From positions 2,560,001 to 2,624,000 of the forward strand of contig OZ241863.1 of assembly GCA_965203055.1 (NCBI GenBank): DNA of 64,000 nt, read 5' to 3'. Made by a program: the position numbers and the translations under genes. Below the pieces are notes generated by a model, which ran no database searches, was not told the origin of the DNA, and saw nothing but the letters and a program-made list of their open reading frames with translations. Positions 31,101-51,865 of the stretch are shown here, one piece after another. This DNA is from Spirochaetia bacterium (GTDB lineage Bacteria; Spirochaetota; Spirochaetia; SZUA-6; Bin103). Every line of letters begins with the position of its first letter. The first letter of the stretch is position 1.

Positions 31101-31441
31101 TCGAAGAGCGCGCCGGGAGCGCCGCCGCGAGCGCTGTGGAGGGTTTGCGCCGGCGTGGAGAGAGCGAAGCGCGGCAGCTCCGCGAGACCCTGGAACGCCA
31201 GCGCCGGCGGGTGCGGGCGGAGCTCGACCGGCACGACGCGGAGGCGGCGCAGCTCACCATTGAGTTCAGCGACGAGGAGCAGCGCCAGCGCCGGGCCGAC
31301 GTCGCCGCCTGGCGCCGCCGCCTCACGCAGTTCGACCGCGACCTGGAAACCGAACCGGCTCGCATCCGCGACTTCTACGAAGTGCGCGCGCAACGGGTCG
31401 AACCGGTGGGTCTGGTCTACCTGTGGCCGGACACCGGCTGA
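28133..31441 (+). CDS. drmD: DISARM SNF2-like helicase DrmD
   Basis: [49 protein letters not shown] and C-terminal [10 protein letters not shown]. First gene of the DISARM order. Confidence 0.92.
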
Positions 31442-31448
31442 CGGACAG

Positions 31449-32738
31449 ATGAAGCACCGACACTTTCAAGAACTCCGGCTCGAAAACTTCCGCTGCTTTC
31501 GCGAGCAGACGGCCCGGCTGGCGCCGCTGACCCTGCTGGTCGGCGAGAACAGCACCGGCAAGACCTCGTTCCTCGCCGCAGTACGGGCCATTTGCGAAGT
31601 TGCCATTCGTTGCCGGGAACCCGACTTCCGCGAGACGCCATTTGACCTGGGGACGTTTCCCGAGATCGTTCACCGCCCCAGTGTCAGGGCGCAAATCCCT
31701 GATACCTTTCGAATCGGCATTGAGGCAGCGTCGGAGCCACATCCATTTGACTGCAGCGCAACGTTCAAGTCGGGAGATGGCTTTGCTCCCGAGATCTATA
31801 GCGGACGCGTGATCCATGGCAGTGTGTGGATCGAGTGGCAGGCACTAACCAGAGACGACGTTGACTTTACGTTTGGATCAGGCGAGTTCTCGAAACGCGG
31901 AGAATTGACTGCGATGCCCTGTGACTGGAAGTCAGTGGCCGGATGTTCGCACTTCATAATGATGGACGAAGACGACAGCAATCGGAAATGGAGTAGTGAT
32001 GACCAAAACGCCATGGGCGCTCTGATGGTGGCCGACGCGTTGTTCGATCGGCCCCCGTTTGCAAGTGCGCCGCTACGTTCCAGCCCAAGACGGACCTATG
32101 ACCCCAGCCGACCATCACCGGACCCGCAGGGAAGTTACGTTCCCACCCTGCTGTCGAGCATGCAACTCAACAACGCAGATCAGTGGATGGATCTGAAGAA
32201 GAAGATGGAGGGCTATGGGCGTACCTCGGGCCTGTTCGACGAGTTGTCAGTAAAGCCATTCGGTTCCTCCGAAGGGGCTCCGTTTCAACTTCAGATAAGA
32301 AAGTTCGGTAAGCGAGTCAAGGGAATGAAACGCAATCTGATCGACGTGGGATACGGCGTAAGCCAGGCGCTTCCCGTACTGGTGGAGTTGTTCCGACCTG
32401 ATGGCGCGTCGATGTTCCTCCTGCAGCAACCGGAAGTGCACTTGCATCCCAGCGCCCAGGCAGAACTCGGCAGCCTGTTTTGTACCGCTGCTGCGTCGGG
32501 GCGTCAACTTATCGTCGAAACTCACAGCGAGTACATCATGGATCGTGTCCGAATGGACCTCCGCGACCGAAAGACAGACTTGACACCGGATGACGTGTCC
32601 ATCTTATTCTTCGAGCGGTCCGATCTGGAGGTTCGCATCCACTCCGTGAGGTTCGATCAGCAAGGCAACGTTCTGAATGCGCCGAGTAGCTACGGGCGGT
32701 TCTTCATGGACGAAACACGCCGGTCGGTAGGTCTCTGA
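31449..32738 (+). CDS. ABC/SMC-like ATPase (AAA_21/DUF3696-type), copy 1
   Basis: LENFRCF, VGENSTGKTS, DVGYGVSQ, QQPEVHLHP and IVETHSE motifs. Confidence 0.88.
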   Translation: MKHRHFQELRLENFRCFREQTARLAPLTLLVGENSTGKTSFLAAVRAICEVAIRCREPDFRETPFDLGTFPEIVHRPSVRAQIPDTFRIGIEAASEPHPFDCSATFKSGDGFAPEIYSGRVIHGSVWIEWQALTRDDVDFTFGSGEFSKRGELTAMPCDWKSVAGCSHFIMMDEDDSNRKWSSDDQNAMGALMVADALFDRPPFASAPLRSSPRRTYDPSRPSPDPQGSYVPTLLSSMQLNNADQWMDLKKKMEGYGRTSGLFDELSVKPFGSSEGAPFQLQIRKFGKRVKGMKRNLIDVGYGVSQALPVLVELFRPDGASMFLLQQPEVHLHPSAQAELGSLFCTAAASGRQLIVETHSEYIMDRVRMDLRDRKTDLTPDDVSILFFERSDLEVRIHSVRFDQQGNVLNAPSSYGRFFMDETRRSVGL

Positions 32739-32848
32739 TGTGCGCTATCGTAGACGCCAACGTGGCACATCAGGTATTACGGACGCACATAGACAACTCC
32801 TTGCCGCACGCAATCTCTGTCGCGCACCACGGACTTGACGATGTCTGA
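32738..32848 (+). pseudogene. truncated PIN-domain partner gene remnant
   Basis: TGATG-coupled MCAIVDANVAHQV... matches the start of the intact PIN at 34259 (MCAIVDASAVFEV). It diverges after about 13 aa and stops at 36 aa. Confidence 0.7.
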
Positions 32849-32924
32849 CACCGGATCCGAACGCATGCTACCTCGCCGTTATAGGAGATCCCGGACCGCG
32901 AAGGACCGATCTGATACGAGGCTG

Positions 32925-34259
32925 ATGCAGGAGCTCAGTGTTCAGAACTTTCGCTGCTTTTGCGGACCGCAGGCCGCTCGGCTGGCGCCTCTCACCCTGC
33001 TGGTGGGTGAAAACAGTACCGGAAAGACTTCGTTTCTCGCAGCGGTGACTGCGATTCTGGAGGTGGCGAATTACGATGGAGACCCTGATTTCCGAGCCAT
33101 TCCCTACGATCTCGGATCGTTTCCTGAGATTGCTCACCGGCAGCACCCGCACGGCCGGCATGAGGGAGCAGAGTCGTTCAGCATTGGTGTCCGTTTCACC
33201 GATTCGGAGGTAGAACCAGTCGGAGTAGACGCCACGTTCGTCCTCGGTGTTGGAGCTGCTCCTATTCTCGGGTCCGTGACATGGAGCGCCGGGGACGTAT
33301 GGATTCGAGGACTGGGACGTGAGGCGGAGGCCGGCACGGAACTAGGTAGCACGAGTGGAGCCTGGCGGCTGACGGCGTCGAGCGGGGCGGCCGATCTTCG
33401 TCATCTCTACCGCGGCGATTCGTATTCGCTGGTGCGGACCCTCCGACAAGCCATGGAGAGCGGGTCACCGGGAAAACTACGGCCGCTGCAAGGAGATACT
33501 CCGGCCGTCCCTACCGGGGATGACTATCGCAAGCTAATCGGTCTATGCGTCAACAGTACAGAATTTGACGTAGCGGCTACTCACGGGGCATCGATTCGAT
33601 CCAGTCCCCGTCGCACCTACGATCCGGTACGGCTGACACCGGACTCACAGGGTTTCTCGATGCCGTCATTCCTCGCTAGTGCATATTCTCAAGATGCCGA
33701 CCGGTGGCGGCTGATGAAACGGCATCTGGAGGAATTCGGCCGCTCATCGGGTCTGTTCGACGAGATATTCGTGAACCGTCTCGGACGAGAAAAGTTCGGA
33801 CCTTTTCAGTTGGAGATACGAAAGTGGGGCAAGAAGCGCAAGGGCCTAAAACATAACCTTGTCGACGTGGGCTACGGAGTGAGCCAGGTCTTGCCGCTGT
33901 TGGTAGACCTGATGTACCCGCGCGGATCATCGCCGTTTCTCTTGCAGCAGCCGGAGATACACCTGCATCCGAGCGCCCAGGCAGAACTCGGTAGCTTGTT
34001 CTGCGCAACGGCAGCATCCGGCCGCCAGCTCATCATCGAGACCCACAGCGACTACCTCGTCGACCGCATCCTGCTCGATATTCGCGACAAACGCACCGAC
34101 CTGAAGCCGGACGACGTATCGATCCTCTATTTCGAGCGCGAAGATCTGGCGGTGACCATCCACTCGATATCCATCGATGATGAAGGCAACGTGCTTGACG
34201 CTCCCGAGGGATACCGCAAGTTCTTCAAGGATGAGCTGCAACGGGTGATCGACTACTGA
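32925..34259 (+). CDS. ABC/SMC-like ATPase (AAA_21/DUF3696-type), copy 2
   Basis: VQNFRCF, VGENSTGKTS, DVGYGVSQ, QQPEIHLHP and IIETHSD. Paralogue of 31449. The start could instead be 32865. Confidence 0.88.
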   Translation: MQELSVQNFRCFCGPQAARLAPLTLLVGENSTGKTSFLAAVTAILEVANYDGDPDFRAIPYDLGSFPEIAHRQHPHGRHEGAESFSIGVRFTDSEVEPVGVDATFVLGVGAAPILGSVTWSAGDVWIRGLGREAEAGTELGSTSGAWRLTASSGAADLRHLYRGDSYSLVRTLRQAMESGSPGKLRPLQGDTPAVPTGDDYRKLIGLCVNSTEFDVAATHGASIRSSPRRTYDPVRLTPDSQGFSMPSFLASAYSQDADRWRLMKRHLEEFGRSSGLFDEIFVNRLGREKFGPFQLEIRKWGKKRKGLKHNLVDVGYGVSQVLPLLVDLMYPRGSSPFLLQQPEIHLHPSAQAELGSLFCATAASGRQLIIETHSDYLVDRILLDIRDKRTDLKPDDVSILYFEREDLAVTIHSISIDDEGNVLDAPEGYRKFFKDELQRVIDY

Positions 34260-34732
34260 TGTGTGCCATCGTTGATGCCAGCGCGGTGTTCGAGGTGTTT
34301 GGCAGGAGGCAGACCGAGGCTGGGCGCCGATTCAGGGACTGGTTGGACAGCGGCCGCGGACAGATCGTGGTCGGCGGCAAAGTGCTGGAGGAACTGACGA
34401 AAAACGGGAACTTCAATCGCTGGTTCGTGGAGGCGCGCCGGTCGGGTGGCAGCGTACGCCAGTTGCCCGCGGAGACCATGCTGGAACAGGAAACTCAGAT
34501 CGACCGCGGCCTGATGCGTTCCAACGATCAGCACGTTGTCGCTCTTGCCCTGGTGAGTGGAGCGCGCTTGCTTTATGCCAATGACAAACTGCTGCAGCAT
34601 GACTTCACGAACCGGCAGGTGGTCTCCGGTGTGGAGGGGCGCATCTATACCTCTCGTCCGGACGGGCGGTTCACGGACCATCACCAAGCGTTGCTGCAAA
34701 CGCCGAACCTCTGCGGCGGGCAGTCCTGTTGA
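34259..34732 (+). CDS. PIN-domain protein
   Basis: IVDAS, LEEL, SNDQHVVALA and LLYANDKLL give the PIN acidic-residue pattern. Translationally coupled to the ATPase. Confidence 0.75.
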   Translation: MCAIVDASAVFEVFGRRQTEAGRRFRDWLDSGRGQIVVGGKVLEELTKNGNFNRWFVEARRSGGSVRQLPAETMLEQETQIDRGLMRSNDQHVVALALVSGARLLYANDKLLQHDFTNRQVVSGVEGRIYTSRPDGRFTDHHQALLQTPNLCGGQSC

Positions 34733-38733: not shown

Positions 38734-39156
38734 ATGGAGCGGCAACTCAAACACCTCGAGTTCGTCCAGGGCGTAGTAAGCCGTCTGGCCGCCAACTCGT
38801 TCCGCATAAAGGGATGGAGCGTGGTACTGGTCTCCGCTCTGTTCGTCCTGGCAGCACGAGAGGGCCGGATCGCGTTCTCCTTCATCGCCCTGGTCCCTCT
38901 CGCCTTCCTCTGGTGGCTGGACGGCTACTTCCTCTGGCAGGAGCGTCTGTTCCGAGCGCTGTATGACCACGTGCGAAGTCTGGACGAATCCAAGATAGAC
39001 TTTTCGATGAACGTTGCTCCGTTCATGGGCAATCGTCCTCGAACATGGCGGAGCGCGATATTCTCGAAGACATTGGTCATATTCTATGTCGCGTTGAGTA
39101 CCACCGTCTTCCTTGCCGTCGCGATATACCTGATCTTCAATGGAGGGCCGTCGTGA
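38734..39156 (+). CDS. small multi-pass membrane protein paired with a TIR gene
   Basis: KHLEFVQGVVSRLAANSFRIKGW followed by about 3 hydrophobic segments. The stop overlaps the TIR start (GTGA). Confidence 0.8.
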   Translation: MERQLKHLEFVQGVVSRLAANSFRIKGWSVVLVSALFVLAAREGRIAFSFIALVPLAFLWWLDGYFLWQERLFRALYDHVRSLDESKIDFSMNVAPFMGNRPRTWRSAIFSKTLVIFYVALSTTVFLAVAIYLIFNGGPS

Positions 39157-39650
39157 AACGCAGAGTGTTCTTCAGCTTCCACTACGAACCTGACGCATGG
39201 CGGGTATCGCAGATTCGCAGCATCGGGGCACTTGAAAGAAATAGGCCGGTTACCGACAACGACTGGGAGCAAATAAAGCGAGGCGGCGCTGACGCGATCA
39301 AACGATGGATCGCGGGGCAGATGAAGTACCGTTCCTGTACGGTCGTGCTGGTAGGATCGAACACCGCCAACCGAAAGTGGATCAACTATGAGATCGTCAA
39401 GTCATGGAATGACGGTATGGGAGTCGTGGGGATACATATTCACGGATTGGAAGACCAGAACGGTAGCACGTCATCCAAAGGAAAAAATCCATTCGATTTC
39501 ATTTCTGACGGAAATGGCGTATTGCTTTCTTCGATAGTAAAATGTTATAATCCAAGCGGCTTCAATGGCACGCAGCGCTACGCCTGGATTTCCCAAGACC
39601 TTGCAAATGCCGTAGATGAAGCTATTTGTATCAGAAACAATTATCACTGA
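39153..39650 (+). CDS. Thoeris ThsB-like TIR-domain protein (MTH538/DUF1863-like)
   Basis: KRRVFFSFHY..DAWR, SCTVVLVG, RKWINYEI (catalytic Glu) and GKNPF. Confidence 0.88.
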   Translation: MKRRVFFSFHYEPDAWRVSQIRSIGALERNRPVTDNDWEQIKRGGADAIKRWIAGQMKYRSCTVVLVGSNTANRKWINYEIVKSWNDGMGVVGIHIHGLEDQNGSTSSKGKNPFDFISDGNGVLLSSIVKCYNPSGFNGTQRYAWISQDLANAVDEAICIRNNYH

Positions 39651-39682
39651 TACCAACAACTCAACGCTACACGAATCGTCTG

Positions 39683-40870
39683 ATGATCACTCGGGTACGC
39701 CTGCGAAACTACAGGAGCATCGCCGCCTGCTCCGTCGCACTGAAGCCGCTGACGATTCTGGTCGGTCCGAACGGCGCCGGCAAGAGCAACTTCCTTGACG
39801 GGTTGCGCTTCATGGCGGAATCGCTCCGGTACTCTCTGGAGCATGCGCTGCGCGATCGTGGCGGAATCGACGAAGTGCGGCGGCGATCGGATGACCGTGC
39901 GGACAGCTTCGCGATTCGCATCGACGTGCGACTTGCGGACGCGGCGGGCTGGTACGGGTTCGAGATCGGCGCAACCGGGAAGGGAGGTTACGTCGTGCGG
40001 CGCGAGGAATGCGTCGTCAGATCGGCCCACCCGGAACGATGCGGCTTCTTTCGGGTCCGTCACGGCGAGACCGTCGTCAGCTCCATTCGCCATCCACCGC
40101 CGAACCCCGGAAGGGACCGCCTCTACTTGTTGCGGGCGTCTGCGTACCCCCCGTTCCGACCCGTGTACGACGCCCTGGCCGCCATGGGATTCTACCACCT
40201 GGACCCGGAGCGCATCCGCGACCTCCAGGCACGGGACTCCGGCGACCTCCTGGAGCGGTCCGGGGAGAACATTGCGAGCGTCCTCGACCGGCTTCGGTCG
40301 CACTCGCCGGCCAACGCGGCGCGCATCGACGAGTATCTGTCGGCAATCGTTCCGGGCGTGGTAGGTGTGGAGCCGCTGTCGGTCGGTCCGCGGTTGACCC
40401 TGGAGTTTCAGGAGCAGCCGCCGGGGAAAGCTCCTCGGCGCTTCCTCGCCGGCGCCATGTCGGATGGAACGCTGCACGTGTTGGGCCTGCTGGTGGCGCT
40501 GTTTCAACATGCGGATGGCGCCTCGGAGCGTCCCGGACTGGTGGGAATCGAAGAACCGGAGACCGCGCTGCACCCCGCCGCCGCAGGGGCGCTGACCGAC
40601 GTGCTGCAGGAAACGAGCGAGCGCGTGCAGGTGATCGTCACCAGCCACAGCGCGGATTTGCTGGACCGGGACGCGATCTCGGAAGATTCCATCGTGGCCG
40701 TGGACGCGGAACAAGGCGAGACCCGAATCGCGCGGCTCGACGAGACCGGCCGTACCACCTGCCGTGACGGCCTGTTCACCGCCGGCGAGTTGCTCCGTAT
40801 GGACCAACTGAGCCCGGACCCGGATGCCGCGGCGTCCGTGGACCTGGACCTCTTTCGCGACGAGGAATGA
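39683..40870 (+). CDS. ABC/SMC-like ATPase (AAA_21)
   Basis: LRNYRS, VGPNGAGKSN, MSDGT, IEEPETALHP and VTSHS motifs. Confidence 0.9.
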   Translation: MITRVRLRNYRSIAACSVALKPLTILVGPNGAGKSNFLDGLRFMAESLRYSLEHALRDRGGIDEVRRRSDDRADSFAIRIDVRLADAAGWYGFEIGATGKGGYVVRREECVVRSAHPERCGFFRVRHGETVVSSIRHPPPNPGRDRLYLLRASAYPPFRPVYDALAAMGFYHLDPERIRDLQARDSGDLLERSGENIASVLDRLRSHSPANAARIDEYLSAIVPGVVGVEPLSVGPRLTLEFQEQPPGKAPRRFLAGAMSDGTLHVLGLLVALFQHADGASERPGLVGIEEPETALHPAAAGALTDVLQETSERVQVIVTSHSADLLDRDAISEDSIVAVDAEQGETRIARLDETGRTTCRDGLFTAGELLRMDQLSPDPDAAASVDLDLFRDEE

Positions 40871-40873
40871 TCC

Positions 40874-41503
40874 TTGATCCGAATCGTGGCCATCGTCGAA
40901 GGCGATGGCGAAGTGAAGGCGGTGCCGGTGCTGCTCCGGCGGATCGGCGCGGCAGTGGCGCCGCTCGCGGCGCTCGACGTAGCGCGGCCGATCCGCGTGT
41001 CGCGCGGGCGATTTCTCAAAGGGAGCGGCCTGGAACGCTACGTGAGCTTGGCTGCGAGTCGCGCAGGGCCGGGCGGTCGCATTCTGGTGCTGCTCGACGC
41101 GAACGGCGATTGCCCGGCGGAACTCGGCGCCGCCCTGCTGCGGCGCGCCCGCGCCACGCGGCCGGACCTGCTCATCGAGGTGGTGCTGGCCAAGTGCGAA
41201 TACGAGGCGTGGTTCATCGCGGCGGCTGATTCCCTGCGCGGCACACGCGGCATATCGAATGCCGCCAACGTACCGCCTGACCCGGAATCGATCCGCGGCG
41301 CCAAGGAGTGGCTCCGCGCCCGGATGAGCGGCCCCTACAGCCCCACCGCCGACCAAGCCGCGCTCACCGCCCGGTTCGACATGACGGCGGCCCGCCGCCG
41401 CGCGCCGTCGTTCGACAAGATGTGGCGCGCCGTCGGCGTCCTGATGCTCTCCGCCCGGTCGCAGGAGGATCAGCCAGGCTGCCGGCCACCTACCGTCCGG
41501 TAG
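40874..41503 (+). CDS. DUF4276 (TOPRIM-like) protein
   Basis: IVEGDGE, VLLDA and EYEAWF motifs; usual partner of AAA_21 ATPases. Confidence 0.8.
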   Translation: MIRIVAIVEGDGEVKAVPVLLRRIGAAVAPLAALDVARPIRVSRGRFLKGSGLERYVSLAASRAGPGGRILVLLDANGDCPAELGAALLRRARATRPDLLIEVVLAKCEYEAWFIAAADSLRGTRGISNAANVPPDPESIRGAKEWLRARMSGPYSPTADQAALTARFDMTAARRRAPSFDKMWRAVGVLMLSARSQEDQPGCRPPTVR

Positions 41504-41599
41504 TGCAATTCCAGGCATGCAGCACGGCGGCACTCCAAAACTGGACAGGCATCACCTATTCAGTTACCCTGAAAGTGGGACTACGGAACCGTGGCGGTG

Positions 41600-42994
41600 A
41601 TGCACAACGACGAACCCACGCTGACAGACGCCCTGGACAGGGGAACGCTGATTGAAGAAGTCGGGAAGGCCGTAGCTACTTGTACGCCGCCGCAGGTGTT
41701 CGGGGTTCACGGTGATTGGGGTCTAGGGAAGACGAGCTTCCTCCACCAAGTGCAGTGGCACTTAACCGGCACCTGCCCGCAGCGGTCCGACGCCGCCGCG
41801 CCGGAACAGTCCGCGCTACTACCACCGAAAGGTAAGTACCGTAAGGCGATCCGAACGATCTGGTTCGATGCGTGGCGCTATCAGCACGAGGACGTACCCG
41901 TCATCGCCCTGCTCCACGAGATGCGCGCGCAGCTGTCATACTGGCATCGTAAAGGCGGCGTAGTCATTAGAGGGGCTCTTCTTTCTTTCGAGGAAATAAC
42001 GAAGAAAATCGGCATCAAGTATTCCACGTTTCGAAAAGCCAATCGCGAGTGGAAGGCTGAACATCTCCATGTTCCATTGCCATCGTATACCATACGTAAG
42101 CACCTGCGTGAAGCTATCGATCGGTTGATACCGCGCAAGCAATCAGCCCAGGCGCCGTCTCCTCGTCTTGCAATCTTCATCGACGACATAGACCGATGCG
42201 AGCCCGACGCCGCCTTCCGCCTGTTAGAGGGTCTCAAAATATTTCTCACCCTGGAGAACTGCGTGTTCGTTCTTGGAATGAATCAGAAGGTGATTGAGAA
42301 AGCGATCGGCAGCCAGATACTCGACGAAGACTCCCCGAAAGAACGCGCCGCCGCCTACATGGACAAGCTATGTCAAAACGTGTGGCGCCTGCCTGCAGTC
42401 AGGAGACCTGATCTGTTTCTCGAAGATATGCTGGCGGATACGGTCAAATACAAGAACACTCGGAACCGCATCATAGAGGGGATCAAAGACCTTCGCTGCC
42501 TACCTCCTAACCCCCGTCGTCTCAAGGGTCTTGCAAATCTGATCGGGAGGATGTCGGTGTGGCTTCCGAGCCAACGAAATGCAGACAAAAATAGTGCGAT
42601 TCGCCAGGCACAGCTACTCATGGTTGTCGCCTATACGTATCAATTCCATCACGATCTCTACGTTCGGTGGGAAGCAGATCACACACTCTACGACAAGATA
42701 TACGATTGGTGTCGGGGAACGCTGCCGACACCTTCGGAAAGCGAAGATGACAACAACGGTGTCAAAGGTCAGACGTTGGATATCTTTACGTCGATGATTC
42801 TCCCACTACGCGATACTGGTATCGATCAGGGCGAGCCAACGCCGCAACAGAGTAGTAAGATGGAACGGACGTACCCTGATCCAGGCGATAGTCGCGTCTT
42901 CTGGATACAGCCGCTGGTTCAGCGTCTCGGCGACGAAGTGAACGCCGATCAATTCCGGCCTTACCTTTACGGACCGGATCAAGCATCGTCATGA
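41600..42994 (+). CDS. KAP family P-loop NTPase
   Basis: N-terminal NDEP...D.L.R, GVHGDWGLGKTS, WFDAWRY, FIDDIDRC and NPRRLK. Confidence 0.9.
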   Translation: MHNDEPTLTDALDRGTLIEEVGKAVATCTPPQVFGVHGDWGLGKTSFLHQVQWHLTGTCPQRSDAAAPEQSALLPPKGKYRKAIRTIWFDAWRYQHEDVPVIALLHEMRAQLSYWHRKGGVVIRGALLSFEEITKKIGIKYSTFRKANREWKAEHLHVPLPSYTIRKHLREAIDRLIPRKQSAQAPSPRLAIFIDDIDRCEPDAAFRLLEGLKIFLTLENCVFVLGMNQKVIEKAIGSQILDEDSPKERAAAYMDKLCQNVWRLPAVRRPDLFLEDMLADTVKYKNTRNRIIEGIKDLRCLPPNPRRLKGLANLIGRMSVWLPSQRNADKNSAIRQAQLLMVVAYTYQFHHDLYVRWEADHTLYDKIYDWCRGTLPTPSESEDDNNGVKGQTLDIFTSMILPLRDTGIDQGEPTPQQSSKMERTYPDPGDSRVFWIQPLVQRLGDEVNADQFRPYLYGPDQASS

Positions 42995-45612
42995 GTGCAA
43001 CCACCTCCCGAACGGTTCTAACGATGTCCGACCTGTTTGCTAACCCGGCCCTTCGATCCTATCTTTCCAACGTCCGTGACTGGCATGGATACATTCGCTT
43101 TCTCGGATTGCCCGACCGCCGCGACCATCCTGACATCATAATCGACCGCCTGTTCGTCCCGCCGCTTCTGACGGACCGGTACGTTTCTGCTGACGATGAT
43201 CCGTCCGACTGGATCGACGACGCGGAGACGCTGATGACGGTGCTGGCGGTCGACAAGCCGATGGTACTATTGGGTGATCCCGGCACTGGTAAATCGGCGC
43301 TTGTGAATTACCTGGTCTGGCTGCTTTCGCGTCCCGCCGAGAACGGATTGGTAGCTCGGATCGGATGGCGCTTGCCGGTTCCCATGATTCTCAGAGACCT
43401 TCGTCTTGAGGGCGTAACGGACTTCAACGGCCTGCTACAAGCTTTCTTGAAACATGCGATGAGTGCGCCGCTCCGCGATGATACATTTCTTCACGAAGCA
43501 CTATCGGACGGCCAAGCGTTCATTCTACTGGACGGCATCGATGAAATCGGTGACATAGAGGCACGCGAAAGCTTACGCCTAGCGGTGTTCGACGGATTTA
43601 CTCGCTACCCTCGTTGTCGTTGGCTGCTGACGTCAAGGATCGTCGACTACAGTGAAGTACCGTTTGACCGCCATAAAGGTTACAGCCGAGCTGGCAACGT
43701 CAATGCCGAAAGTGGCCCGATAACCAACCGTATGAACGACCTCTTTGTCAAGCGTTCAAGGGTGTTTTTGCCTGACGTGGAGAGGCGCTATATCGCGCCG
43801 TTCGATGATCCACGCATCAAGGCGTTCGCCCGCCGTTGGTATGACGTTCGAGAGGCGGCTGCAGTGCGAGCGGGCGAAGATGCCGCCCATCTCGTTAAAG
43901 CGGTTCATGCGGACGACGGGATTCTCCGACTAGCGCGGATTCCTCACCTGCTGACTATGATGGCCTTGATCCATCGAATCGAAGCAACATTACCGCAAGA
44001 GCGGGCGCTGCTCTACGATCGCATTGCGGAGGCATACTTGGAGTCGATAGACAAGTATCGAGGCATCTACTCCGGTGCCGCTGACTTACCGTTCAAGAAG
44101 CGTTGGCTGGCTCGTGTCGGATTTGAAATGCAGCGTCGCCGCGACGCTCGGGACGGCCCTGACCAATCGGAAATTCTTGTCGATGCCGCCGACGTTCTTG
44201 GCTGGGTGCGCGCTGAGATGGAGCGTCACCCGGTGCCTGGCGCGGATACTCCGGAGGAATTTCTTCAATTCGTGAAGCGGCGCAGCGGTCTGCTTCTGCC
44301 TCGCGGAGAAAATCGCTATGCGTTCATACACTTATCGTTTCAGGAGTACTTTGCCGCTCATGCTGTGAGGCGCGAAATCATGACCCCTAAATGGATAAAG
44401 GAGGGAGAATCCCCGCTAGGTTTTAGATCAGCTTCATTGCTCAATTGGGGGAAAAGACTTGCTTGGACCGAGACGTTCGTATTCCTTTTCGAAATGCTCT
44501 CTTCCGAAGAGGATTGGCATGACGATCTTCGAGATTGTGTTTTCGGGGATAAGTTCTCGCATTTGTGCGACATGACAGATTCGACCTTAGGGCTTAATGT
44601 TTTAGCATCTCGTTTGGCAAGACATCGACGATCTCGCTTTATCTCGTCTGAGATAGTTGATACTATAGTCAATAGAGATGATATAGAACAGATACATAAA
44701 CTGAGCTTATCGGAGTTTCAAGTATCGGACGTGTCTCCGATATCTCGTCTTACTTCACTTCAGTATCTTTCGTTGGACGGGACACAGGTATCAGACCTGA
44801 CCCCGCTTGCGGACCTTGCTTCACTTCAGCATCTTTCGTTGGACGGGACACAGGTATCAGACCTGACCCCGCTTGCGGACCTTGCTTCACTTCAGCATCT
44901 TTCGTTGGACGGGACACAGGTATCAGACCTGACCCCGCTTGCGGACCTTGCTTCACTTCAGCATCTTTCGTTGGACGGGACACAGGTATCAGACCTGAGC
45001 CCGCTTGCGGACCTTGCTTCACTTCAGCATCTTTCGTTGGACGGGACACAGGTATCAGACCTGACCCCGCTTGCGGACCTTGCTTCACTTCGGTTTCTTT
45101 TATTGGACGGGACACAGGTATCGGACCTGACCCCGCTTGCGGACCTTGCTTCACTTCGGTTTCTTTGGTTGGACGGGACACGGGTGTCAGACCTGACCCC
45201 CCTTGCACACCTTACTTCACTTCGGGATCTTTCCTTGAACAGGACACAGGTATCGGACCTTACCCTCCTTGAGCGCCTTACTTCACTTTGGTTTCTTTGG
45301 TTGGACGGGACACAGGTGTCAGACCTGACCCCCCTTGCACACCTTACTTCACTTCAGTCTCTTTCGCTTGAAAGGACACACGTTTCGGTTCTGGATCCGC
45401 TTGCTCACCTCACCTCGCTTCGACATCTTTGGCTAGATGACACGGAGGTGTCGGACTTGACGCCGCTCGTCGCACTTACGTCGCTTCAAAATATCGATAT
45501 AGAGAGGACTCGCGTGTCGGAAAGGTCAGTCAGAAGATTACATGAGGCGCTTCCAAGCTGTAACATAACGTATCAAGGGATACCGTCTGACGCACGGGCG
45601 GAGCATGAATGA
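42991..45612 (+). CDS. NACHT-domain STAND NTPase with C-terminal leucine-rich repeats (bacterial NLR-like)
   Basis: LLGDPGTGKS, LLDGIDE, LTSR, RIPHLLTM, RSGLL and FIHLSFQEYFAA, followed by about 13 22-aa LRRs. Confidence 0.9.
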   Translation: MSATTSRTVLTMSDLFANPALRSYLSNVRDWHGYIRFLGLPDRRDHPDIIIDRLFVPPLLTDRYVSADDDPSDWIDDAETLMTVLAVDKPMVLLGDPGTGKSALVNYLVWLLSRPAENGLVARIGWRLPVPMILRDLRLEGVTDFNGLLQAFLKHAMSAPLRDDTFLHEALSDGQAFILLDGIDEIGDIEARESLRLAVFDGFTRYPRCRWLLTSRIVDYSEVPFDRHKGYSRAGNVNAESGPITNRMNDLFVKRSRVFLPDVERRYIAPFDDPRIKAFARRWYDVREAAAVRAGEDAAHLVKAVHADDGILRLARIPHLLTMMALIHRIEATLPQERALLYDRIAEAYLESIDKYRGIYSGAADLPFKKRWLARVGFEMQRRRDARDGPDQSEILVDAADVLGWVRAEMERHPVPGADTPEEFLQFVKRRSGLLLPRGENRYAFIHLSFQEYFAAHAVRREIMTPKWIKEGESPLGFRSASLLNWGKRLAWTETFVFLFEMLSSEEDWHDDLRDCVFGDKFSHLCDMTDSTLGLNVLASRLARHRRSRFISSEIVDTIVNRDDIEQIHKLSLSEFQVSDVSPISRLTSLQYLSLDGTQVSDLTPLADLASLQHLSLDGTQVSDLTPLADLASLQHLSLDGTQVSDLTPLADLASLQHLSLDGTQVSDLSPLADLASLQHLSLDGTQVSDLTPLADLASLRFLLLDGTQVSDLTPLADLASLRFLWLDGTRVSDLTPLAHLTSLRDLSLNRTQVSDLTLLERLTSLWFLWLDGTQVSDLTPLAHLTSLQSLSLERTHVSVLDPLAHLTSLRHLWLDDTEVSDLTPLVALTSLQNIDIERTRVSERSVRRLHEALPSCNITYQGIPSDARAEHE
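44692..45520 (+). repeat. 66-bp tandem repeat array encoding 22-aa LRRs
   Basis: Full units start at 44758 and every 66 nt to 45418, plus a degenerate unit at 44692 and a partial one at 45484. Consensus is LxxLxLDGTQVSDLTPLAxLxS. The five units from 44758 to 45087 differ from their consensus by at most 1 nt. Confidence 0.95.
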
Positions 45613-46757
45613 GGCATCTTCCGAGCGACTGCGCGGCAGTCGGCATGCTGCAGGGCGTTGCGCCCGCTCGTAGACGGCAGCCGTTGTCTTCCGGCAATCG
45701 GCTACGTTGGCGGCCCTTCAACGAGATAACGAGATCGCAGTTTACCGCCGTCAGAGTCCGTCGCTATCGCGGCATCGATGGTCTGTTACTCGATAGTCCC
45801 GGAAGAGTCAATCTCATCGTTGGCGTGAACAACTCGGGAAAGACCTCGCTGCTCGAAGCGATCTATCTGTTGGCGCACCAGAGCGATGAGCAGGCGCTGC
45901 TCGACGTTATCCGCTGGCGCGGTCGAGTGGAAGGGGATCCCGACCCGCCTTGGTTGGTGGAGCAACTTCCTCCCGTCATCCGGCTCTCCGGGAACTTCGA
46001 CCAGATCGCGGAGGACAGTACGACCTTCAAGGCCAATGTCCTCAATGAGCCGGGTGATGACTTTGGAGAGCGGGTTGATTTCCTGGCCCAACTCGTCATC
46101 GCGTCCAACTACGGCTGGCGAGCGCAAAGTACGGACGTCGCGTTCTTTGGAGATGGTCGGCGGCGGACCAGCTTCCAGGGGCGGCATTGGTTGTGCCGCT
46201 CCGCCTTCACCAGCCCGTTCTGGTCGAACCGCCCCGACCTGCTGGCTCACTGCTACAAGGAGAGCCTGGCGGCCGGAACGAAGCAGCAGGTCATCGACTT
46301 CATCAGAGAGCACGTCGATCCGGGGCTCCATGACATCGAACTCGCGGAACGGTTCAACCGCTTCCTCGTAAGCCATAGCGACTTCTCTCGCGCACAGGAT
46401 CTTGCGTTGTTCGGGGAAGGGGTGCGCCGAGTGTTCGAGATCGGGCTGCTCTTTGCGGGCGTTCAGGGGGGCGTCCTGTTGATCGATGAGTTCGAGAACG
46501 CGATCCACACCGACCTCCTGGTACCGTTCACGCGTTTCGTTCAGCGGCTTGCCGTCGACCTCAACGTGCAAGTATTCCTGACCACTTACAGCAAGGAGAC
46601 GATCGATGCCTTGCTTCTCAACGAATACCGAACCGCCGACATCGTAGGCTATGCGGTCAGCCGTACCGGCGAGGGCGCCGAGGTAAGACGCTACGACGGC
46701 AACAAGCTGCTCCGCCTGCACGAGGCGATAGACTTCGACCTGCGAGGGATTCGTTGA
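45609..46757 (+). CDS. ABC/SMC-like ATPase (AAA_15/AAA_21)
   Basis: RRYRGI, VGVNNSGKTS, FGEGVRR and LIDEFENAIH. The H-loop reads TTYS. ATGA overlap with the NACHT gene. Confidence 0.85.
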   Translation: MRHLPSDCAAVGMLQGVAPARRRQPLSSGNRLRWRPFNEITRSQFTAVRVRRYRGIDGLLLDSPGRVNLIVGVNNSGKTSLLEAIYLLAHQSDEQALLDVIRWRGRVEGDPDPPWLVEQLPPVIRLSGNFDQIAEDSTTFKANVLNEPGDDFGERVDFLAQLVIASNYGWRAQSTDVAFFGDGRRRTSFQGRHWLCRSAFTSPFWSNRPDLLAHCYKESLAAGTKQQVIDFIREHVDPGLHDIELAERFNRFLVSHSDFSRAQDLALFGEGVRRVFEIGLLFAGVQGGVLLIDEFENAIHTDLLVPFTRFVQRLAVDLNVQVFLTTYSKETIDALLLNEYRTADIVGYAVSRTGEGAEVRRYDGNKLLRLHEAIDFDLRGIR

Positions 46758-46781
46758 AGACGGTTCTGGCCGGCGCGGCGG

Positions 46782-47585
46782 TCAGCCAGCGGCGAGGGCT
46801 GCGGTGAGGTTGGCTCGTTCCAGCAGCCGGGCGTCCGCCGGGCGCTCCAGGAACGGGCGGACGTCCTGGATGAGTCGGCCGACGTCCAGCGTCGCGAGCT
46901 GCGCCCGGAGCAGCGCCAGCCAGTCCTGCGCGCGATAGCGGCCGGCGCCTTCGGTCTGATCCAGGGCGCGCTGCAGCAGCGGCAGATTCGGCTCCACCGG
47001 CGGGCGCCGGGAGCGGTACCACACCAGATCGAACCAGTCCCGCCCCTTCCGGTAGCGGCGCGCCAGCAGCGCGTGCAACTTGCCGGCCATCAGCGACGGC
47101 AGATCGTAATGGGCCACCACGAAGGTCACGCCGCGCGTGACGATCGTACGCTCGACGGTCGCACCGGCCGGCGGCCGGGTGTCGATCTCGATCTTGATGG
47201 CGAGTTTCTGTTGCGGATGACCGGAAAGCCCCGCTTCGGCGAGCAGCGAGGCGCTGCGGACCCACGCCGCCTGCACCGGTTTGCGGTCGTGCCAGCGAAT
47301 CGTACTCTCGAATCCGGCGAAATGGAGGTCGCGCTTCAGCTTCTCCAACCAGCGGCGCGGGCGGTATCCGGCGGTCGAGGTAAGGCAGAAGTCGAGGTCT
47401 TCGGAGAAGCGCGGCAAGCCCTCCAGCAGGCGCAACGCGGTGCCGCCGACGAACGCCACCGATTGGGCCGCTTCGCTCTCGTGCAGAGACCGCAGGATGA
47501 AGACTTGCAGGTATTCGCGCAGGGCGTTGAGGCGCTGCGTGGGGTCGGAGTAGCGCAGGGCCGCGGCGAGTGCCTGCTCCTTCAC
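46782..47585 (-). CDS. abiEii: AbiEii-family nucleotidyltransferase toxin (type IV TA)
   Basis: FVGGTALR....PRFSEDLDF, KIEID, GKLHAL and KGRDWFD motifs. Confidence 0.9.
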   Translation of the reverse strand: MKEQALAAALRYSDPTQRLNALREYLQVFILRSLHESEAAQSVAFVGGTALRLLEGLPRFSEDLDFCLTSTAGYRPRRWLEKLKRDLHFAGFESTIRWHDRKPVQAAWVRSASLLAEAGLSGHPQQKLAIKIEIDTRPPAGATVERTIVTRGVTFVVAHYDLPSLMAGKLHALLARRYRKGRDWFDLVWYRSRRPPVEPNLPLLQRALDQTEGAGRYRAQDWLALLRAQLATLDVGRLIQDVRPFLERPADARLLERANLTAALAAG

Positions 47586-48223
47586 AGTTCCTCGCCTTCA
47601 TCGTCGGGCAGGTAGCAGCATTCCCGCCAGACCCGCACGGCGTGTAGAATCCTTGGCTTGGCCATGCGCCGCGCGAAGGCGTCGAGGCGGTCGAGATCGA
47701 GCAGTTCGGTCTGCTGGAACCGCATCTCGATCATGCGGTCGGCGTCCCACGCGCCGGGCGTCAGATGGAACAGGTCGAGCAGCGCCTTCTCCATCGTGGC
47801 CACCGCCGCGTCGCTGCCGGCGACGGGAACGGCGTGGTACCCGAAGAAGAAATCGCGCTTCACGTTGCGGTAGCTGAAGATGCCGAACCGGTTCTCGAAC
47901 TCGCGCGGCGTGCGCGTGGTGACGCTGGTGTAGACCGGCACGCTCTCGGGAATGACGCCGTAGAAGCTCAACGCCCACGAGCCGCTGAGATAGGAGGGCG
48001 TGAGCAGCACGTTGGCCAGCGTGGCCGGCGCCAGCGGCGCCCGCCGGTAGCGATCGGCCAACGCGTAGCGGCCCCGGCGCAGGGCGACCACCTTCCCCGC
48101 CCTGCCCCATCGGTGCAGTTGACTCACCACGCTCGCCCGCGGCTCCGCGATGAGCTGCGTCACCGTCGCCAAGTCGAACGACGGCTCCGCCCCGAGAAGC
48201 TCCACGACATCATCGAACCGCAT
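47582..48223 (-). CDS. abiEi: AbiEi-family antitoxin
   Basis: LRRGRY, PSYLS...ALSFYGVIPE, TSVT and EKALLD motifs. Overlaps the toxin start. Confidence 0.85.
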   Translation of the reverse strand: MRFDDVVELLGAEPSFDLATVTQLIAEPRASVVSQLHRWGRAGKVVALRRGRYALADRYRRAPLAPATLANVLLTPSYLSGSWALSFYGVIPESVPVYTSVTTRTPREFENRFGIFSYRNVKRDFFFGYHAVPVAGSDAAVATMEKALLDLFHLTPGAWDADRMIEMRFQQTELLDLDRLDAFARRMAKPRILHAVRVWRECCYLPDDEGEEL

Positions 48224-48351
48224 CCCCCAATCCATCCATTTACGATAATGGACAAACATGCTGATTATCGTCAACCATTCATCCGCGCCCTGCACGTGCC
48301 GGCCGGCGCAGTGTGCTATGCTTTCCGGCGCGCCCAGCAGGAGAAGTAGAC

Positions 48352-48910: not shown

Positions 48911-50521
48911 ATGCGCTTCTTCAACACCGCGGGACCGATCATCGCGGAGGATCACTACCACGTGCCGCCGCTGCAGCGGCTGGACCGGGACGAGCTGCTC
49001 AAGCTGATCGACTGGAAGCGCTACTTCGTGCTGCACGCCCCCCGGCAGACCGGCAAGACGTCGGCGCTGCTGGCGCTGAATGATGAACTGAACGGCAGCG
49101 GGAAGTACCGCTGCCTGTACTGCAACGTCGAGGTCGCCCAGTCCGCGCGCGAGGACGTGGCCGCGGCGATGCGGGCGATCCTCAATACCATCGCGCGGCA
49201 GGCCCGGCTCCACCTGAACGACCCGTTCCCGGACGAGGCGCGCCGCGGCCTGCTGGAACGCGCCGGGCCTCATGACGCGCTCCGGGAGGTGCTGGCGCTG
49301 TGGGCGGCGGCCGACGCCAAGCCGTTGGTGCTGCTGCTCGACGAGATCGACGCGCTGGTGGGCGACACCCTGATCGCCGTGCTGCGGCAACTGCGCGCGG
49401 GCTACGCCGAGCGCCCGCGCCACTTCCCGCAGAGCGTGGTCCTGTGCGGCGTGCGCGACGTGCGCGACTACCGCATCCGATCTTCCAGCCGGAACGAGGT
49501 GATCGCCGGCGGCAGCCCGTTCAACGTCAAGGTCACGTCGCTGCGGCTGGACGATTTCTCGCCGGACGAGGTGCGCGCGCTGCTCCTCCAGCACACCGCC
49601 GAGACCGGGCAGCGGTGGACCGGGGAAGCCATAGAACGGGTATGGGAACTGACTCAGGGGCAGCCCTGGCTGGTAAACGCGCTGGCCTACCAGGCGTGCT
49701 TCGACGATCCGGCCGGTCGCGACGGCAGCCTGCCGGTCACCGCGGACGCGATCCGGGCCGCCGCGGAACGGCTGATCGTGCGCCGCGACACTCACCTGGA
49801 CCAGCTCGCCGACAAGCTCCGCGAGGAGCGCGTCCGCAACGTGATCGAGCCGCTGCTCAGCGGCGGCGGCGAACGCGGCTACTCCGCGGCCGACGTCGAG
49901 TACGTGCGCGACCTGGGCCTGATCGCCCGCGGCGACCCGTTGCGCATGGCCAATCCGATCTACGCCGAAGTGGTGCCGCGCGAACTGACCAGCCACGTCC
50001 AGGCGAGCGTGGTCGAGGACCCGGCGTGGTACGTGGACCCCGACGGCGGCTTGAACGTCGCGCGGCTGCTGGCCGCGTTCGGGGAGTTCTTTCGGGAACA
50101 TTCCGAGCACTGGGTGCAGCGGTTCCAGTATCGGGAAGCCGGCCCCCAGTTGCTGCTGCAGGCGTTTCTGCAGCGCATCGTGAACAGTGGCGGCCAGATC
50201 CACCGGGAGTACGGGCTGGGGCGGATGCGCACCGATCTGCTGATCGTCTGGCCGGCGGGGGCGGTGGCGGGAACGGCAGGAGCGGCGCCGGGAACGGCGC
50301 GCAGGACGGTGATCGAGTGCAAGGTGGTGACGGCGAAGCAGGGGATGGAGCGGACCGTGCGCGACGGGCTGGCGCAGACGCGCGCCTACCTTGAGCGGTG
50401 CGCGGCGGCCGAGGGCCACTTGGTGGTATTCGACCGCCGGCCCGAGCGCACCTGGGAGCAGAAGCTCTTTCGCCGTGAGGAGACGACCGGCGGCGCGCCG
50501 GTGACCGTGTGGGGAATGTAG
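48911..50521 (+). CDS. AAA-like ATPase with C-terminal PD-(D/E)XK-like domain
   Basis: MRFFNTAGP, APRQTGKTS, LLDEID and REY..GRMRTDLL...IECK. Confidence 0.85.
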   Translation: MRFFNTAGPIIAEDHYHVPPLQRLDRDELLKLIDWKRYFVLHAPRQTGKTSALLALNDELNGSGKYRCLYCNVEVAQSAREDVAAAMRAILNTIARQARLHLNDPFPDEARRGLLERAGPHDALREVLALWAAADAKPLVLLLDEIDALVGDTLIAVLRQLRAGYAERPRHFPQSVVLCGVRDVRDYRIRSSSRNEVIAGGSPFNVKVTSLRLDDFSPDEVRALLLQHTAETGQRWTGEAIERVWELTQGQPWLVNALAYQACFDDPAGRDGSLPVTADAIRAAAERLIVRRDTHLDQLADKLREERVRNVIEPLLSGGGERGYSAADVEYVRDLGLIARGDPLRMANPIYAEVVPRELTSHVQASVVEDPAWYVDPDGGLNVARLLAAFGEFFREHSEHWVQRFQYREAGPQLLLQAFLQRIVNSGGQIHREYGLGRMRTDLLIVWPAGAVAGTAGAAPGTARRTVIECKVVTAKQGMERTVRDGLAQTRAYLERCAAAEGHLVVFDRRPERTWEQKLFRREETTGGAPVTVWGM

Positions 50522-50542: not shown

Positions 50543-51865
50543 CTACGGCCGGTACTCTACCAGGGCGGAGCGGCCGGTGACGTCGACGATGCGAACCCGC
50601 CGTTCCCGGCCGGCGGCGTCTGCAAGACGCAGTTCTTCGCCCGGAATGAACGGCACCGGCTGCGGTTGGCCGTCGTTGATGGCGATGTTCGACGCCGAGA
50701 CGAAGGTGCGGGCGCGGGCGTCGCGGACGGCATGCAACGTTCCGGTCAGCCCGGGCACGGAACCGGCGGCTTCCGGGAAGATGACCGAGCCGCCGTCCGG
50801 CAAGGCGGTGAGTTCGACCGCGAGCGCGCGCCGGCACGGCGTCCACTCCTGTTCCACGTGCGCGGCGTGGCCCGCCGCGGCGGCGTATACCGTCAGCGGC
50901 AGTTCGGTGGTGTGCAGGGCCGCCGCGGCGATGCCGGCGGCGTCGGCAGTGGCCCGCTGCCAAGTGCGGTTGGGGAACAGGATCAGCAGGTCGCTGCCGG
51001 GCAGGGGGCGCCCGGCAGCGCGCACCGCGATCCGCACCTGCGCCGGACTCGGCGTCGTGGGAGCGGAGGGGAGCACGACCAGCACCTCGGCGTCGGCGAT
51101 GACGCGGAACTGCGCCGGCTTGCCGCTCACGCTCCTGGTTTCGTTCAGGATCACCGGGACGCCGTCGCCGCGCCGTTCCATGAAGTAGCGCCGCTCCCCG
51201 CTGCCCCGCGTGTCGCCGGCCGGCATTCGGCCCAGCATGGAAGCCAGCACTTCGTTGCGCGTGGCCTGCCGATCGGCGATGTTCTCGACCGTCAAGCTGT
51301 TCGGCAGCGTGCCCGGCGACTGGATTTCCAGCCGGTCCGAGAACAACGACAGGCGGATGCGGCTGCCGCGGATGGAGTACAGGTCGCGGTGCGCCACCGC
51401 GTTGACCACGGCCTCGAAGATGGCGCGCTCGCTGTATTGGGGCAGATCGATGCGCGCCGGGTCATTGTGCGCCGCCACCTGCATGTTGCGCACGGCGAAG
51501 GCCACGGCGTCGGCGATCTGGCGGTTCAGCGGCCCGCCGATGGTCTGCGCGTCGACCTGCCCGGACGCGCGGTCGGCGCCGCGGTAGCGGGTAGCGGTGA
51601 TGCAGGCGTTGGGGAGCCACTGCTCCGGGGCGCGGCTGCACAACAGGATGCCGGCCACGGTCGCCCGCCGCGGGCCGTCCGCGGTGTCGGTCAACAGCCC
51701 CAACTTGGCGAGGGCGAGGTCGGGAGCGGCAGCGCCCTGAGCGCTCACCAGCGGTTTCCACAGCGCCTCATCCAGCGACCCGAAGCCGGTTTCCGGAACC
51801 GGCTGCTCGTCGAACCACAGGCCCAACCGCAACCGGCGCCGGATCACCTCTTCGCTCAACTCCAC
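50543..51865 (-). pseudogene. Schlafen/AlbA_2-HATPase_c_4 family protein apparently lacking its AlbA_2 domain
   Basis: EAVVNAVAHRD, EIQSPGTL, RNEVL and MERRGDGV (HATPase_c_4-like). The N-terminus jumps from RRRLRLG straight to LWFDEQPV. Confidence 0.6.

Follow-up and report, generated by a model that had tools for sequence, protein, structure and literature searches.

A KAP NTPase and a NACHT-LRR protein form a conserved two-gene module, a candidate for anti-phage defence, inside a spirochaetal DISARM island

We analysed a stretch of 64,000 nucleotides from a Spirochaetia bacterium (contig OZ241863.1, positions 2,560,001 to 2,624,000; hereafter the window) that carries a DISARM defence island. 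Within the island lie three adjacent genes which a first-pass annotation had proposed to be one new defence system: a KAP-family NTPase, a NACHT protein with leucine-rich repeats (LRRs), and an ABC ATPase. Our data indicate that the pair of KAP and NACHT-LRR genes, not the triad, is the conserved unit. The proposal that the KAP NTPase and an effector-less NACHT-LRR protein are coupled is borne out across related loci, while the proposal that all three genes form one system is contradicted by them, as an ABC ATPase gene follows the NACHT-LRR gene in 0 of 18 loci. The functional unit is probably an autonomous, horizontally mobile two-gene KAP/NACHT-LRR module, of the kind of bacterial NLRs (receptors that bind nucleotides and carry leucine-rich repeats), with a candidate role against phage; the ABC gene would not be part of it.

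The three open reading frames (ORFs) are co-oriented on the plus strand at 41591-42994 (467 aa), 42991-45612 (873 aa) and 45609-46757 (382 aa), with a 4-nt ATGA overlap at both junctions (KAP/NACHT-LRR and NACHT-LRR/ABC), as had been described. The overlaps had also been taken as a sign that all three genes are coupled; both are present, but the second is probably not a working start, for reasons given below with the ABC gene. The block had been described as lower in GC than its surroundings, which holds (0.51-0.57 across 41500-45500 against 0.65-0.75 in the flanking DISARM genes), but it is not uniform in composition: the GC content at third codon positions (GC3) is 0.62 in the KAP gene, 0.56 in the NACHT-LRR gene and 0.75 in the ABC gene. 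A scan for promoters and terminators over 41200-47800 returned one promoter-like and four terminator-like sites, at or below the expectation from shuffled sequence.

A search with the NACHT module over one genome per species found two loci of 69% identity in Spirochaetia metagenome-assembled genomes, the first from the genus of the window's genome and the second from its family, and two loci of 26-27% identity in Shewanella. In these four loci the KAP gene overlaps the NACHT-LRR gene by 4 nt and an ABC ATPase follows in none; DrmA stands directly after the NACHT-LRR gene in the two spirochaetal ones. Further loci, 80 from metagenomes and 7 from viral contigs, were gathered with an alignment of the NACHT module. 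We scanned 107 loci with hidden Markov models (HMMs) of both pair proteins and with phmmer searches using four of the ABC ATPases encoded in the window, and counted as close NACHT relatives those with a NACHT score of E≤1e-60, which gave the 18 non-redundant loci. Of these, 17 can be assessed, as the L104 locus begins at the edge of its contig, and 15 of them have a KAP gene immediately upstream in the same orientation; L021 and L022 nearly duplicate each other, and their KAP frame is split. At all 12 loci with a defined start, the junction between the two genes is a 4-nt overlap or a gap of at most 16 nt. Co-occurrence of all three genes in other genomes had been suggested as a check, and the neighbourhoods show the pair only, with no conserved third or fourth gene. 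Indeed, ORF clustering over 4 kb around 16 pairs found no conserved third gene beyond groups of related elements.

Further results bear on the pairing. The pairwise distances of the KAP proteins track those of the NLR proteins (r=0.96), a correlation that none of 2000 permutations matched and that kinship inflates. When the three DISARM-borne copies are aligned at the nucleotide level, homology runs from the KAP ATG at 41600 to the NLR stop. Within the window's clade the KAP gene was never found alone, and the four full-length KAP relatives in viral contigs are the same four loci that the NACHT query had found. At 15 more distant KAP loci, no NACHT partner of this clade was present. A family search over 5.8 billion proteins (E≤1e-10, 8000 scored candidates per query) yielded 990 KAP and 1014 NACHT-LRR clusters at 90% identity among the candidates scored, none of them named. 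The best 120 of each family are full-length matches with at least 52% (KAP) and at least 56% (NACHT-LRR) identity, again without a name, and 33 of the 120 best matches in each list agree in the size of the longest contig that carries them.

We found the pair in several unlike genomic settings. Three related genomes (the window's, L001 and L002) carry it between DrmMI and DrmA, in the orientation of the DISARM genes. An integrase adjoins it in three IMG/VR provirus loci (L101-L103, of which L101 and L103 are rated 100% complete), with Prim-Pol and DUF5906 genes near, and in L104 and L105 it stands beside P2-like gpD tail and baseplate genes. DISARM genes are absent around 12 of the 15 paired loci, and the neighbours include integrases, phage tail genes, ArgRS, MetH, a CoA transferase and PfaD. 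The pair is present in 3 of 148 Shewanella genomes, and a close copy in 3 of 24 genomes of the window's own family (f1). In all three DISARM genomes its GC3 is 0.56-0.67 against 0.85-0.93 in the flanking DISARM genes; among the same genomes the pair is about 62% identical and DrmA 81-83%. Patchy spread, foreign composition and this gap in identity are marks of a mobile accessory module, and they suit a defence function without proving it. Searches with the NACHT module by tblastn returned no match in plasmids (E limit 1e-15) or in GenBank phages (E limit 1e-10), and a repeat search found no convincing terminal repeats around the KAP-NLR block.

Contigs from other runs give hints of copies without the block. 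Contigs of runs X1 and X2 (side of 27 nt) and X8 (side of 42 nt), from three studies, pass from about 41447 to about 45640-45661 and so lack the KAP and NLR genes. Each has a short match that ends at 41447, within the 3' end of the neighbouring HEC-01B gene, and then an ABC3-like gene from about 45640-45661, with about 1.1 kb between the two in X8's contig of 1452 nt, a contig that might carry a complete ABC gene of the long form at this place. Other joints inside the LRR array skip 234 and 277 nt, which are not multiples of 66, and we draw nothing from them. All skip joints, like the junction bridges discussed below, rest on short sides and are hints only.

The longest ORF of the first gene starts at GTG 41591. 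The start kept among relatives is the ATG at 41600, where nucleotide homology with L001 and L002 begins exactly, which places the gene at 41600-42994 on the plus strand. Its product matches Pfam KAP_NTPase (PF07693) at 5.5e-21, with 75.5 bits against a gathering cut-off of 20, and an ESM Atlas search agrees with this identity. In an alignment of 30 family members, the Walker A motif GDWGLGKTS (residues 41-49, numbered from the GTG start; 41711-41737, plus strand) has G41, W43, G44, G46, K47, T48 and S49 invariant, and the Walker B motif FIDDIDRC (residues 196-203; 42176-42199, plus strand) has D198, D199, D201, R202 and C203 invariant; an LPxNPRRLK motif is conserved as well. Pfam and the structural model show an NTPase domain with a helical lobe and no extra domain. 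As the first-pass annotation had noted, a transmembrane (TM) hairpin is missing: the predicted model has none, and there is no TM-like segment, as the best 19-residue Kyte-Doolittle mean is only 1.47 and falls at Walker B. The KAP protein is, as judged from its sequence, soluble.

Among PADLOC families the window's KAP protein matches PDC-S20 best (1e-23), then QatA and PifA, and aligns to positions 11-234 of the 464 in the PDC-S20 profile only. The KAP proteins of L003 and L033 match PDC-S20 over nearly its full length (3e-26 and 2e-22), and for the KAP partners as a group it is the top match (1e-22 to 1e-30), ahead of QatA and PifA. Against the NCBIfam QatA model the window's protein scores 79.6 bits, far under the cut-off of 600. 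Its AlphaFold model (pLDDT 77.7, pTM 0.77) finds the heptameric RdrA rings of RADAR as its best Foldseek matches (E 2.6e-7, TMq 0.46), followed by archaeal AAA+, ORC/Cdc6 and RFC, and a profile search links the protein to 8fnu RdrA at 3.6e-5.

The NACHT-LRR gene (42991-45612, plus strand) starts in the 4-nt overlap with the KAP stop, and its product matches Pfam NACHT at 1.7e-5 and LRR_4 at 4.3e-42. Across 28 sequences, residues G95-K101 of the Walker A motif GDPGTGKS (residues 95-102; 43273-43296, plus strand) are invariant, and the Walker B residues D181, G182, D184 and E185 (DGxDE) and a FxHLSFQEYFAA motif are conserved. The conserved histidine motif of the winged-helix domain (WHD; H447) is also present, and the NACHT motifs are invariant or nearly so in these sequences. 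Both NTPases look active, judging by Walker A and B motifs that are invariant in 30 KAP and 28 NACHT members.

The observation that about 90 residues precede the NACHT Walker A without a recognisable effector domain withstood closer analysis: no Pfam domain matches there at E≤0.01, and an ESM Atlas search with NLR residues 1-92 gave only weak, sub-threshold NNH-type leads (0.75-0.79). At the other end the protein stops 20 residues past the LRRs, and no fused effector or adaptor domain was recognised at either terminus. The count of about 13 LRRs is likewise correct. There are 13 internalin-type units of 22 aa in register (residues 568-853; 44692-45549, plus strand), encoded in a tandem DNA array of 66-bp repeats (44587-45546, plus strand) of which a repeat search counts 11 copies; Tandem Repeats Finder reports 9.6 copies with 90% matches at 44749-45380. 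Pfam sees LRRs in 8 of 9 NLR proteins of the clade that were scanned, L024 being the one without.

We found that the LRR region is the variable part of the protein. It is less conserved than the nucleotide-binding module in all 30 close relatives compared, and variation between units falls at positions 2, 3, 5, 8, 10 and 19, the x positions of LxxLxLxx. Across 120 relatives the number of units per protein ranges from 0 to 16, as counted with an HMM built from the window's own units that may undercount diverged ones, and one relative (P0271) equals the window's protein minus exactly one 22-aa unit. Since faster evolution and varying repeat number are the expected marks of a part that meets phage, the LRR is the presumed sensor.

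We envisage that the LRR horseshoe, fast-evolving and variable in repeat number, would recognise a phage protein. Recognition would free the NACHT switch for nucleotide exchange and oligomerisation, and the signal could then pass to the KAP NTPase, a putative ring-forming, RdrA-like ATPase, whose ring would act as partner, executor or amplifier of the response. The KAP ring is proposed for this place because neither pair protein has a nuclease, protease, TIR or pore domain. The full scheme is tentative, and we hold it as a possibility rather than an expectation: an effector-less NACHT-LRR protein that, on meeting a phage protein, engages an RdrA-like KAP ring whose NTPase activity or assembly stops infection, with gain and loss of 66-bp LRR units retuning specificity.

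The third gene (45609-46757, plus strand) encodes an ABC-type ATPase (Pfam AAA_21 3.5e-16, AAA_15 3e-13). The known-system check with PADLOC, advised at the outset, gave no family for the NACHT-LRR protein and, for the ABC gene, the candidate family PDC-M38A (PDLC04607, 1.5e-95), to which it aligns at positions 356-715 of 715; its match to AbiLi is 2.1e-27. A phmmer scan of 1.84 billion representatives found as best relative P0001 (731 aa, 64% identity), in which residues 10-382 of the query align to 354-731 and which matches the whole PDC-M38A profile at 2.4e-216. The N-terminal half of P0001 carries a weak ParB-type signal (TIGR00180, 7.5e-7, under cut-off). Among the best 150 representatives, 84 have at least 600 aa with the ABC part C-terminal. 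A remnant of the N-terminal domain of the long form was not found in the window (tblastn best E 0.2), and P0001 has no match in plasmids and 0 loci in viral contigs. ABC matches occur in 38 of 401 genomes of the window's phylum.

Short-form ABC genes elsewhere have a partner that is missing here. Ten short-form loci were returned from other genomes, of which four with internal stops were left out; in five of the six examined, a DUF3226 (PDC-M38B) gene follows. The DUF3226 partners of ABC relatives show weak OLD-like TOPRIM and AbiLii-like matches. The window has no DUF3226, the five matches in its genome all lying outside it, and the place where the DUF3226 gene would be is taken by a convergent AbiEii gene, 24 nt past the ABC stop. 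The suggestion that a partner nuclease has been lost from the locus fits this missing gene beside the ABC gene. The same genome carries a second PDC-M38A-like ABC gene outside the window (G000:C1:2896453-2897696; 2.1e-34), with a weak DUF3226-like ORF directly downstream, the customary order that is missing from the copy in the window.

The ABC protein also bears a change at a catalytic position. Residue 327 (46587-46589, plus strand), at the H-loop, is Tyr, where His stands in 131 of 134 aligned homologues and Tyr in none; the H-loop histidine of ABC ATPases is needed for hydrolysis. Homology to the ABC family begins only at about residue 10-45, and upstream of 45654 the reading frame differs in P0057, a relative of 98% identity. 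We therefore regard the ATGA overlap between the NLR and ABC genes as an unlikely working start; a TTG at 45681 would yield a protein of the length of P0002, a relative of 360 aa. At the level of DNA, the frame difference of P0057 must reflect a 1-nt indel polymorphism near 45654, within 45560-45660, at the border of the NLR 3' end and the ABC gene. In one contig of run X4, a joint from 45573 to 46631 leaves out the ABC gene, on a side of 30 nt (a weak hint). The ABC gene probably represents either the 3' part, about one half, of what was a longer gene or a short form bereft of its DUF3226 partner, and in either case it is separate from the pair, probably an unrelated and decaying orphan of PDC-M38A. 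It stands beside the pair only in this lineage, in a slot of the DISARM island where small defence cassettes gather and decay.

Several observations weigh against a mobile two-gene defence module. Two of the 17 close NACHT relatives (L031, L032) have no KAP gene, and their layout differs, with a long N-terminal extension or a short protein. In the 86 loci with weaker NACHT matches a KAP-like gene occurs in two, L047 (8812-11517) and L098 (3882-5606), and there it is downstream rather than upstream; the pairing of NACHT with KAP, in one order or the other, may have more than one origin. We found no KAP-NACHT fusion protein that would speak for physical coupling; the search for KAP fusions gave two weak matches, neither with NACHT or LRR domains, an absence that is weak evidence. 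A complex prediction for NACHT residues 1-520 with full-length KAP (separate alignments, run without controls) gave an ipSAE of 0.00/0.00 and allows no verdict in either direction. The Pfam NACHT score of the window's protein (25.1 bits) is slightly under the gathering cut-off of 26.7, which relatives exceed (L003 38.9, L004 40.5, L025 44.7 and L033 48.5). Many loci (L003, L004, L021, L023-L025) lie among housekeeping genes and not in defence islands, and the argument for defence consists entirely of context and homology. Neither protein has an identifiable effector domain, and the executing step, the weakest part of the scheme, is a guess. As to the third gene, P0002 (62% identity) represents a stand-alone form of about 360 aa, which makes the word 'truncated' uncertain. 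In runs X1 and X2, contigs span the NLR/ABC junction without a single difference, and P0057 has the junction too; the adjacency is real in this lineage and co-transcription possible. Finally, in L062, one of the distant NACHT loci, the next ORF downstream is weakly ABC3-like (E 3e-4).

These last two points, together with the co-orientation and the 4-nt overlaps, speak for the original proposal that all three genes are one system in which the NLR signals through the KAP NTPase, the ABC ATPase or both. Synteny largely refutes it, since no close locus has the ABC gene after the pair and the two closest genomes have DrmA in its place. Furthermore, the ABC gene falls in PDC-M38A, and its relatives there have DUF3226 as their partner; it also has Tyr for a near-invariant H-loop His, differs in GC3 (0.75 against 0.56-0.62) and has its overlapping start in a stretch without a conserved frame. 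We consider a triad very improbable. Equally small is the chance we give to the pair being an accessory or regulatory part of DISARM that does not act on its own. The shared position and strand in three genomes would suit such a part, but most paired loci lack DISARM genes, the pair is far less conserved than DrmA and far lower in GC3, and the same slot carries autonomous cassettes (HEC-01, PDC-M50, AbiE, IetA). L001 and L002 carry IetA ahead of the pair, and we also considered the pair as an IetA partner that replaces IetS; this was rejected, as IetA precedes the pair in those two loci only.

Alternatives that keep the pair as the unit differ in what its members do. The KAP ring might itself sense or defend, with the NACHT-LRR protein as guard, regulator or scaffold, or a mixed oligomer might block phage assembly without killing the cell. 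Single-gene KAP NTPases are described as protecting alone (10.1101/2025.10.07.681051), the best PADLOC match of the KAP partners is the single-gene candidate PDC-S20, and RdrA, which the KAP model resembles, is described as docking on the deaminase RdrB and not as the catalytic effector (PMC9994260). Against such a reversal stand the faster evolution and varying repeat number of the LRR array and a KAP protein with no domain beyond NTPase and helical lobe, and we regard it as unlikely, though with an appreciable share of the probability. We see a smaller chance that the pair has nothing to do with phage: it might serve mobile elements as a signalling or addiction module built of two NTPases, or be a cytoplasmic LRR scaffold that does housekeeping work. 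The loci among housekeeping genes and the want of a recognised effector domain favour this; patchy distribution, foreign composition, and residence in DISARM cargo slots and at provirus ends disfavour it, as does the fact that both protein families have members with experimental support against phage in the sources cited here. Taken together, an anti-phage role of the KAP/NACHT-LRR pair appears the most likely one, a plausible assignment from context and homology.

The island around the pair is a complete DISARM system (DrmD, DrmMI, DrmA, DrmB and DrmC; 28025-60613) interrupted by at least seven small cassettes. None of the KAP, NACHT-LRR and ABC genes has a Drm profile match. The cassettes include two NsnB-like ABC ATPases with a PIN protein (31155-34732), PDC-M50A with a ThsB-like TIR protein (PDC-M50; 38734-39650) and an AAA_31 protein. 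Directly upstream of the pair is the candidate system HEC-01, an ABC ATPase with DUF4276 (39626-41503, plus strand; PADLOC HEC-01A 6.7e-153, HEC-01B 4.5e-76), and downstream of the ABC gene is the convergent AbiEii/AbiEi pair (46782-48295, minus strand; PADLOC AbiEii 5.9e-67, AbiEi 1.6e-44). A 536-aa P-loop protein (AAA_35/AAA_16/AAA_22; 48911-50521) without a PADLOC match lies between AbiE and a convergent HATPase_c_4 gene (50543-51865), which has a weak match to the N-terminal domains of pAgo-associated proteins. The gaps between DISARM genes behave as a cargo site.

The related genomes show the same kind of turnover. L002 (4800-6352) retains, after IetA, no more of IetS than an N-terminal stump of 180 aa, and L001 (5595-6620) has IetA but lacks IetS altogether. 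The KAP gene is the very next gene in the two loci, which looks as though most of ietS had been displaced by the KAP-NLR block. The NACHT-LRR stop of L001 is followed at once (10530-10844) by ABC pieces some 100 aa long that resemble the window's HEC-01A most closely (3e-18), another eroded cassette of this slot. All three genomes have a HEC-01A-like ABC ATPase without DUF4276 between drmA and drmB, starting at the drmA stop (window 56912-58051; L001 13090-15555, C-terminal part; L002 14083-15216), which could be an additional conserved part of this subtype of DISARM.

Bacterial NLR-related proteins have been described as single polypeptides with their own effector; the pair differs in that an effector-less receptor is coupled to a KAP ATPase. 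Two questions follow: how an NLR switch communicates with another NTPase, and by what means the phage is stopped without a classical effector. The family is large, with about 1000 unnamed clusters per partner, and moves among DISARM islands, proviruses and bare chromosomal sites. If the full scheme set out above is true, about 1000 unannotated pairs across distant bacteria and proviruses would make up an unrecognised immune family, and the pair would be the first case in which a bacterial NLR passes its signal in trans to another NTPase. The locus also carries a caution: in a defence island, a start codon that overlaps the preceding stop does not make the genes one system. The DISARM slot keeps eroded leftovers: an orphan ABC gene in the window, the IetS stump in L002 and the ABC fragment in L001.

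The first-pass annotation knew of no named system with the composition it proposed. For the pair this still holds in PADLOC v2.0, NCBIfam and the searched literature. Against PADLOC v2.0, 0 families matched the NACHT-LRR protein at E≤0.01 for all four NLR partners tested (the window's and three relatives'), the STAND profiles of Avs (AVAST) being among those without a match; the seven PADLOC families listed for the KAP protein at the same threshold include neither RdrA nor RdrB; and nothing in NCBIfam scored the pair above cut-offs. The searched literature describes no operonic KAP and NACHT-LRR pair, with bioRxiv supplements lying outside its scope, of which Tables S1 and S2 of Kibby et al. 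could bear on the matter. Neither the main text nor seven supplementary files of a survey of STAND proteins (PMC13581612, 2026) mention KAP, LRR or PF07693, and 'PDC-M38', 'PDC-S20' and 'DUF3226' occur in no paper of the searched literature.

The closest known counterparts of the second gene are the bNACHT proteins, which Kibby et al. (10.1101/2022.07.19.500537) describe as defending against phage, as single genes and mostly with fused effectors. They share the central NACHT module, the C-terminal repeat sensor and the WHD histidine motif. NACHT with LRRs had been taken as the layout of animal NLRs; this distinction does not hold, as bNACHT16 also carries LRRs. A clade without effectors exists as well (bNACHT01, clade 14; 10.1101/2022.07.19.500537). 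The difference is that here an effector-less NACHT-LRR gene is consistently preceded by a KAP NTPase gene; the text of Kibby et al. makes no mention of KAP.

The first gene shares the KAP P-loop domain with PifA, QatA, PDC-S20 and the KAP proteins of the RADS preprint (10.1101/2025.10.07.681051), the source for single-gene protection against phage. TM helices are a typical, not universal, trait of the KAP family and were not found in the window's protein, which is predicted to be soluble like PifA, itself stated to be without TM helices (PMC13001434). The known KAP proteins are single genes or belong to QatABCD, and in the portions of the sources used here none is described with a NACHT partner. 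KAP is reported to substitute for STAND in EAD-linked systems (PMC8195603) and to be, in some cases, a target of diversity-generating retroelements (PMC10907252). RADAR resembles the pair as a two-protein system in which a ring ATPase docks on its partner; RdrA, deposited as 'KAP NTPase domain-containing protein', is described as a heptameric ATPase docking on the RdrB deaminase (Duncan-Lowey et al., PMC9994260). The likeness is limited, with a TMq of only 0.46 and 11-14% identity, and RdrA has about 800-900 aa with a large C-terminal lobe. Furthermore, the partner here is a NACHT-LRR protein and no deaminase is encoded.

The third gene resembles the A gene of the candidate PDC-M38, and also the ATPase of AbiL-type ATPase/TOPRIM pairs, and differs from PDC-M38 in having no B gene (DUF3226), only the C-terminal half of the long form, and the H327Y change. 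None of the three genes is drmA, B, C, D, E or drmMI/MII, which separates them from DISARM itself. In organisation, the pair recalls the sensor/helper NLRs of plants and animals such as NAIP/NLRC4, in which two NTPase switches cooperate and one has the LRR sensor. This is an analogy only, as the second protein here is a KAP NTPase and not a second NLR.

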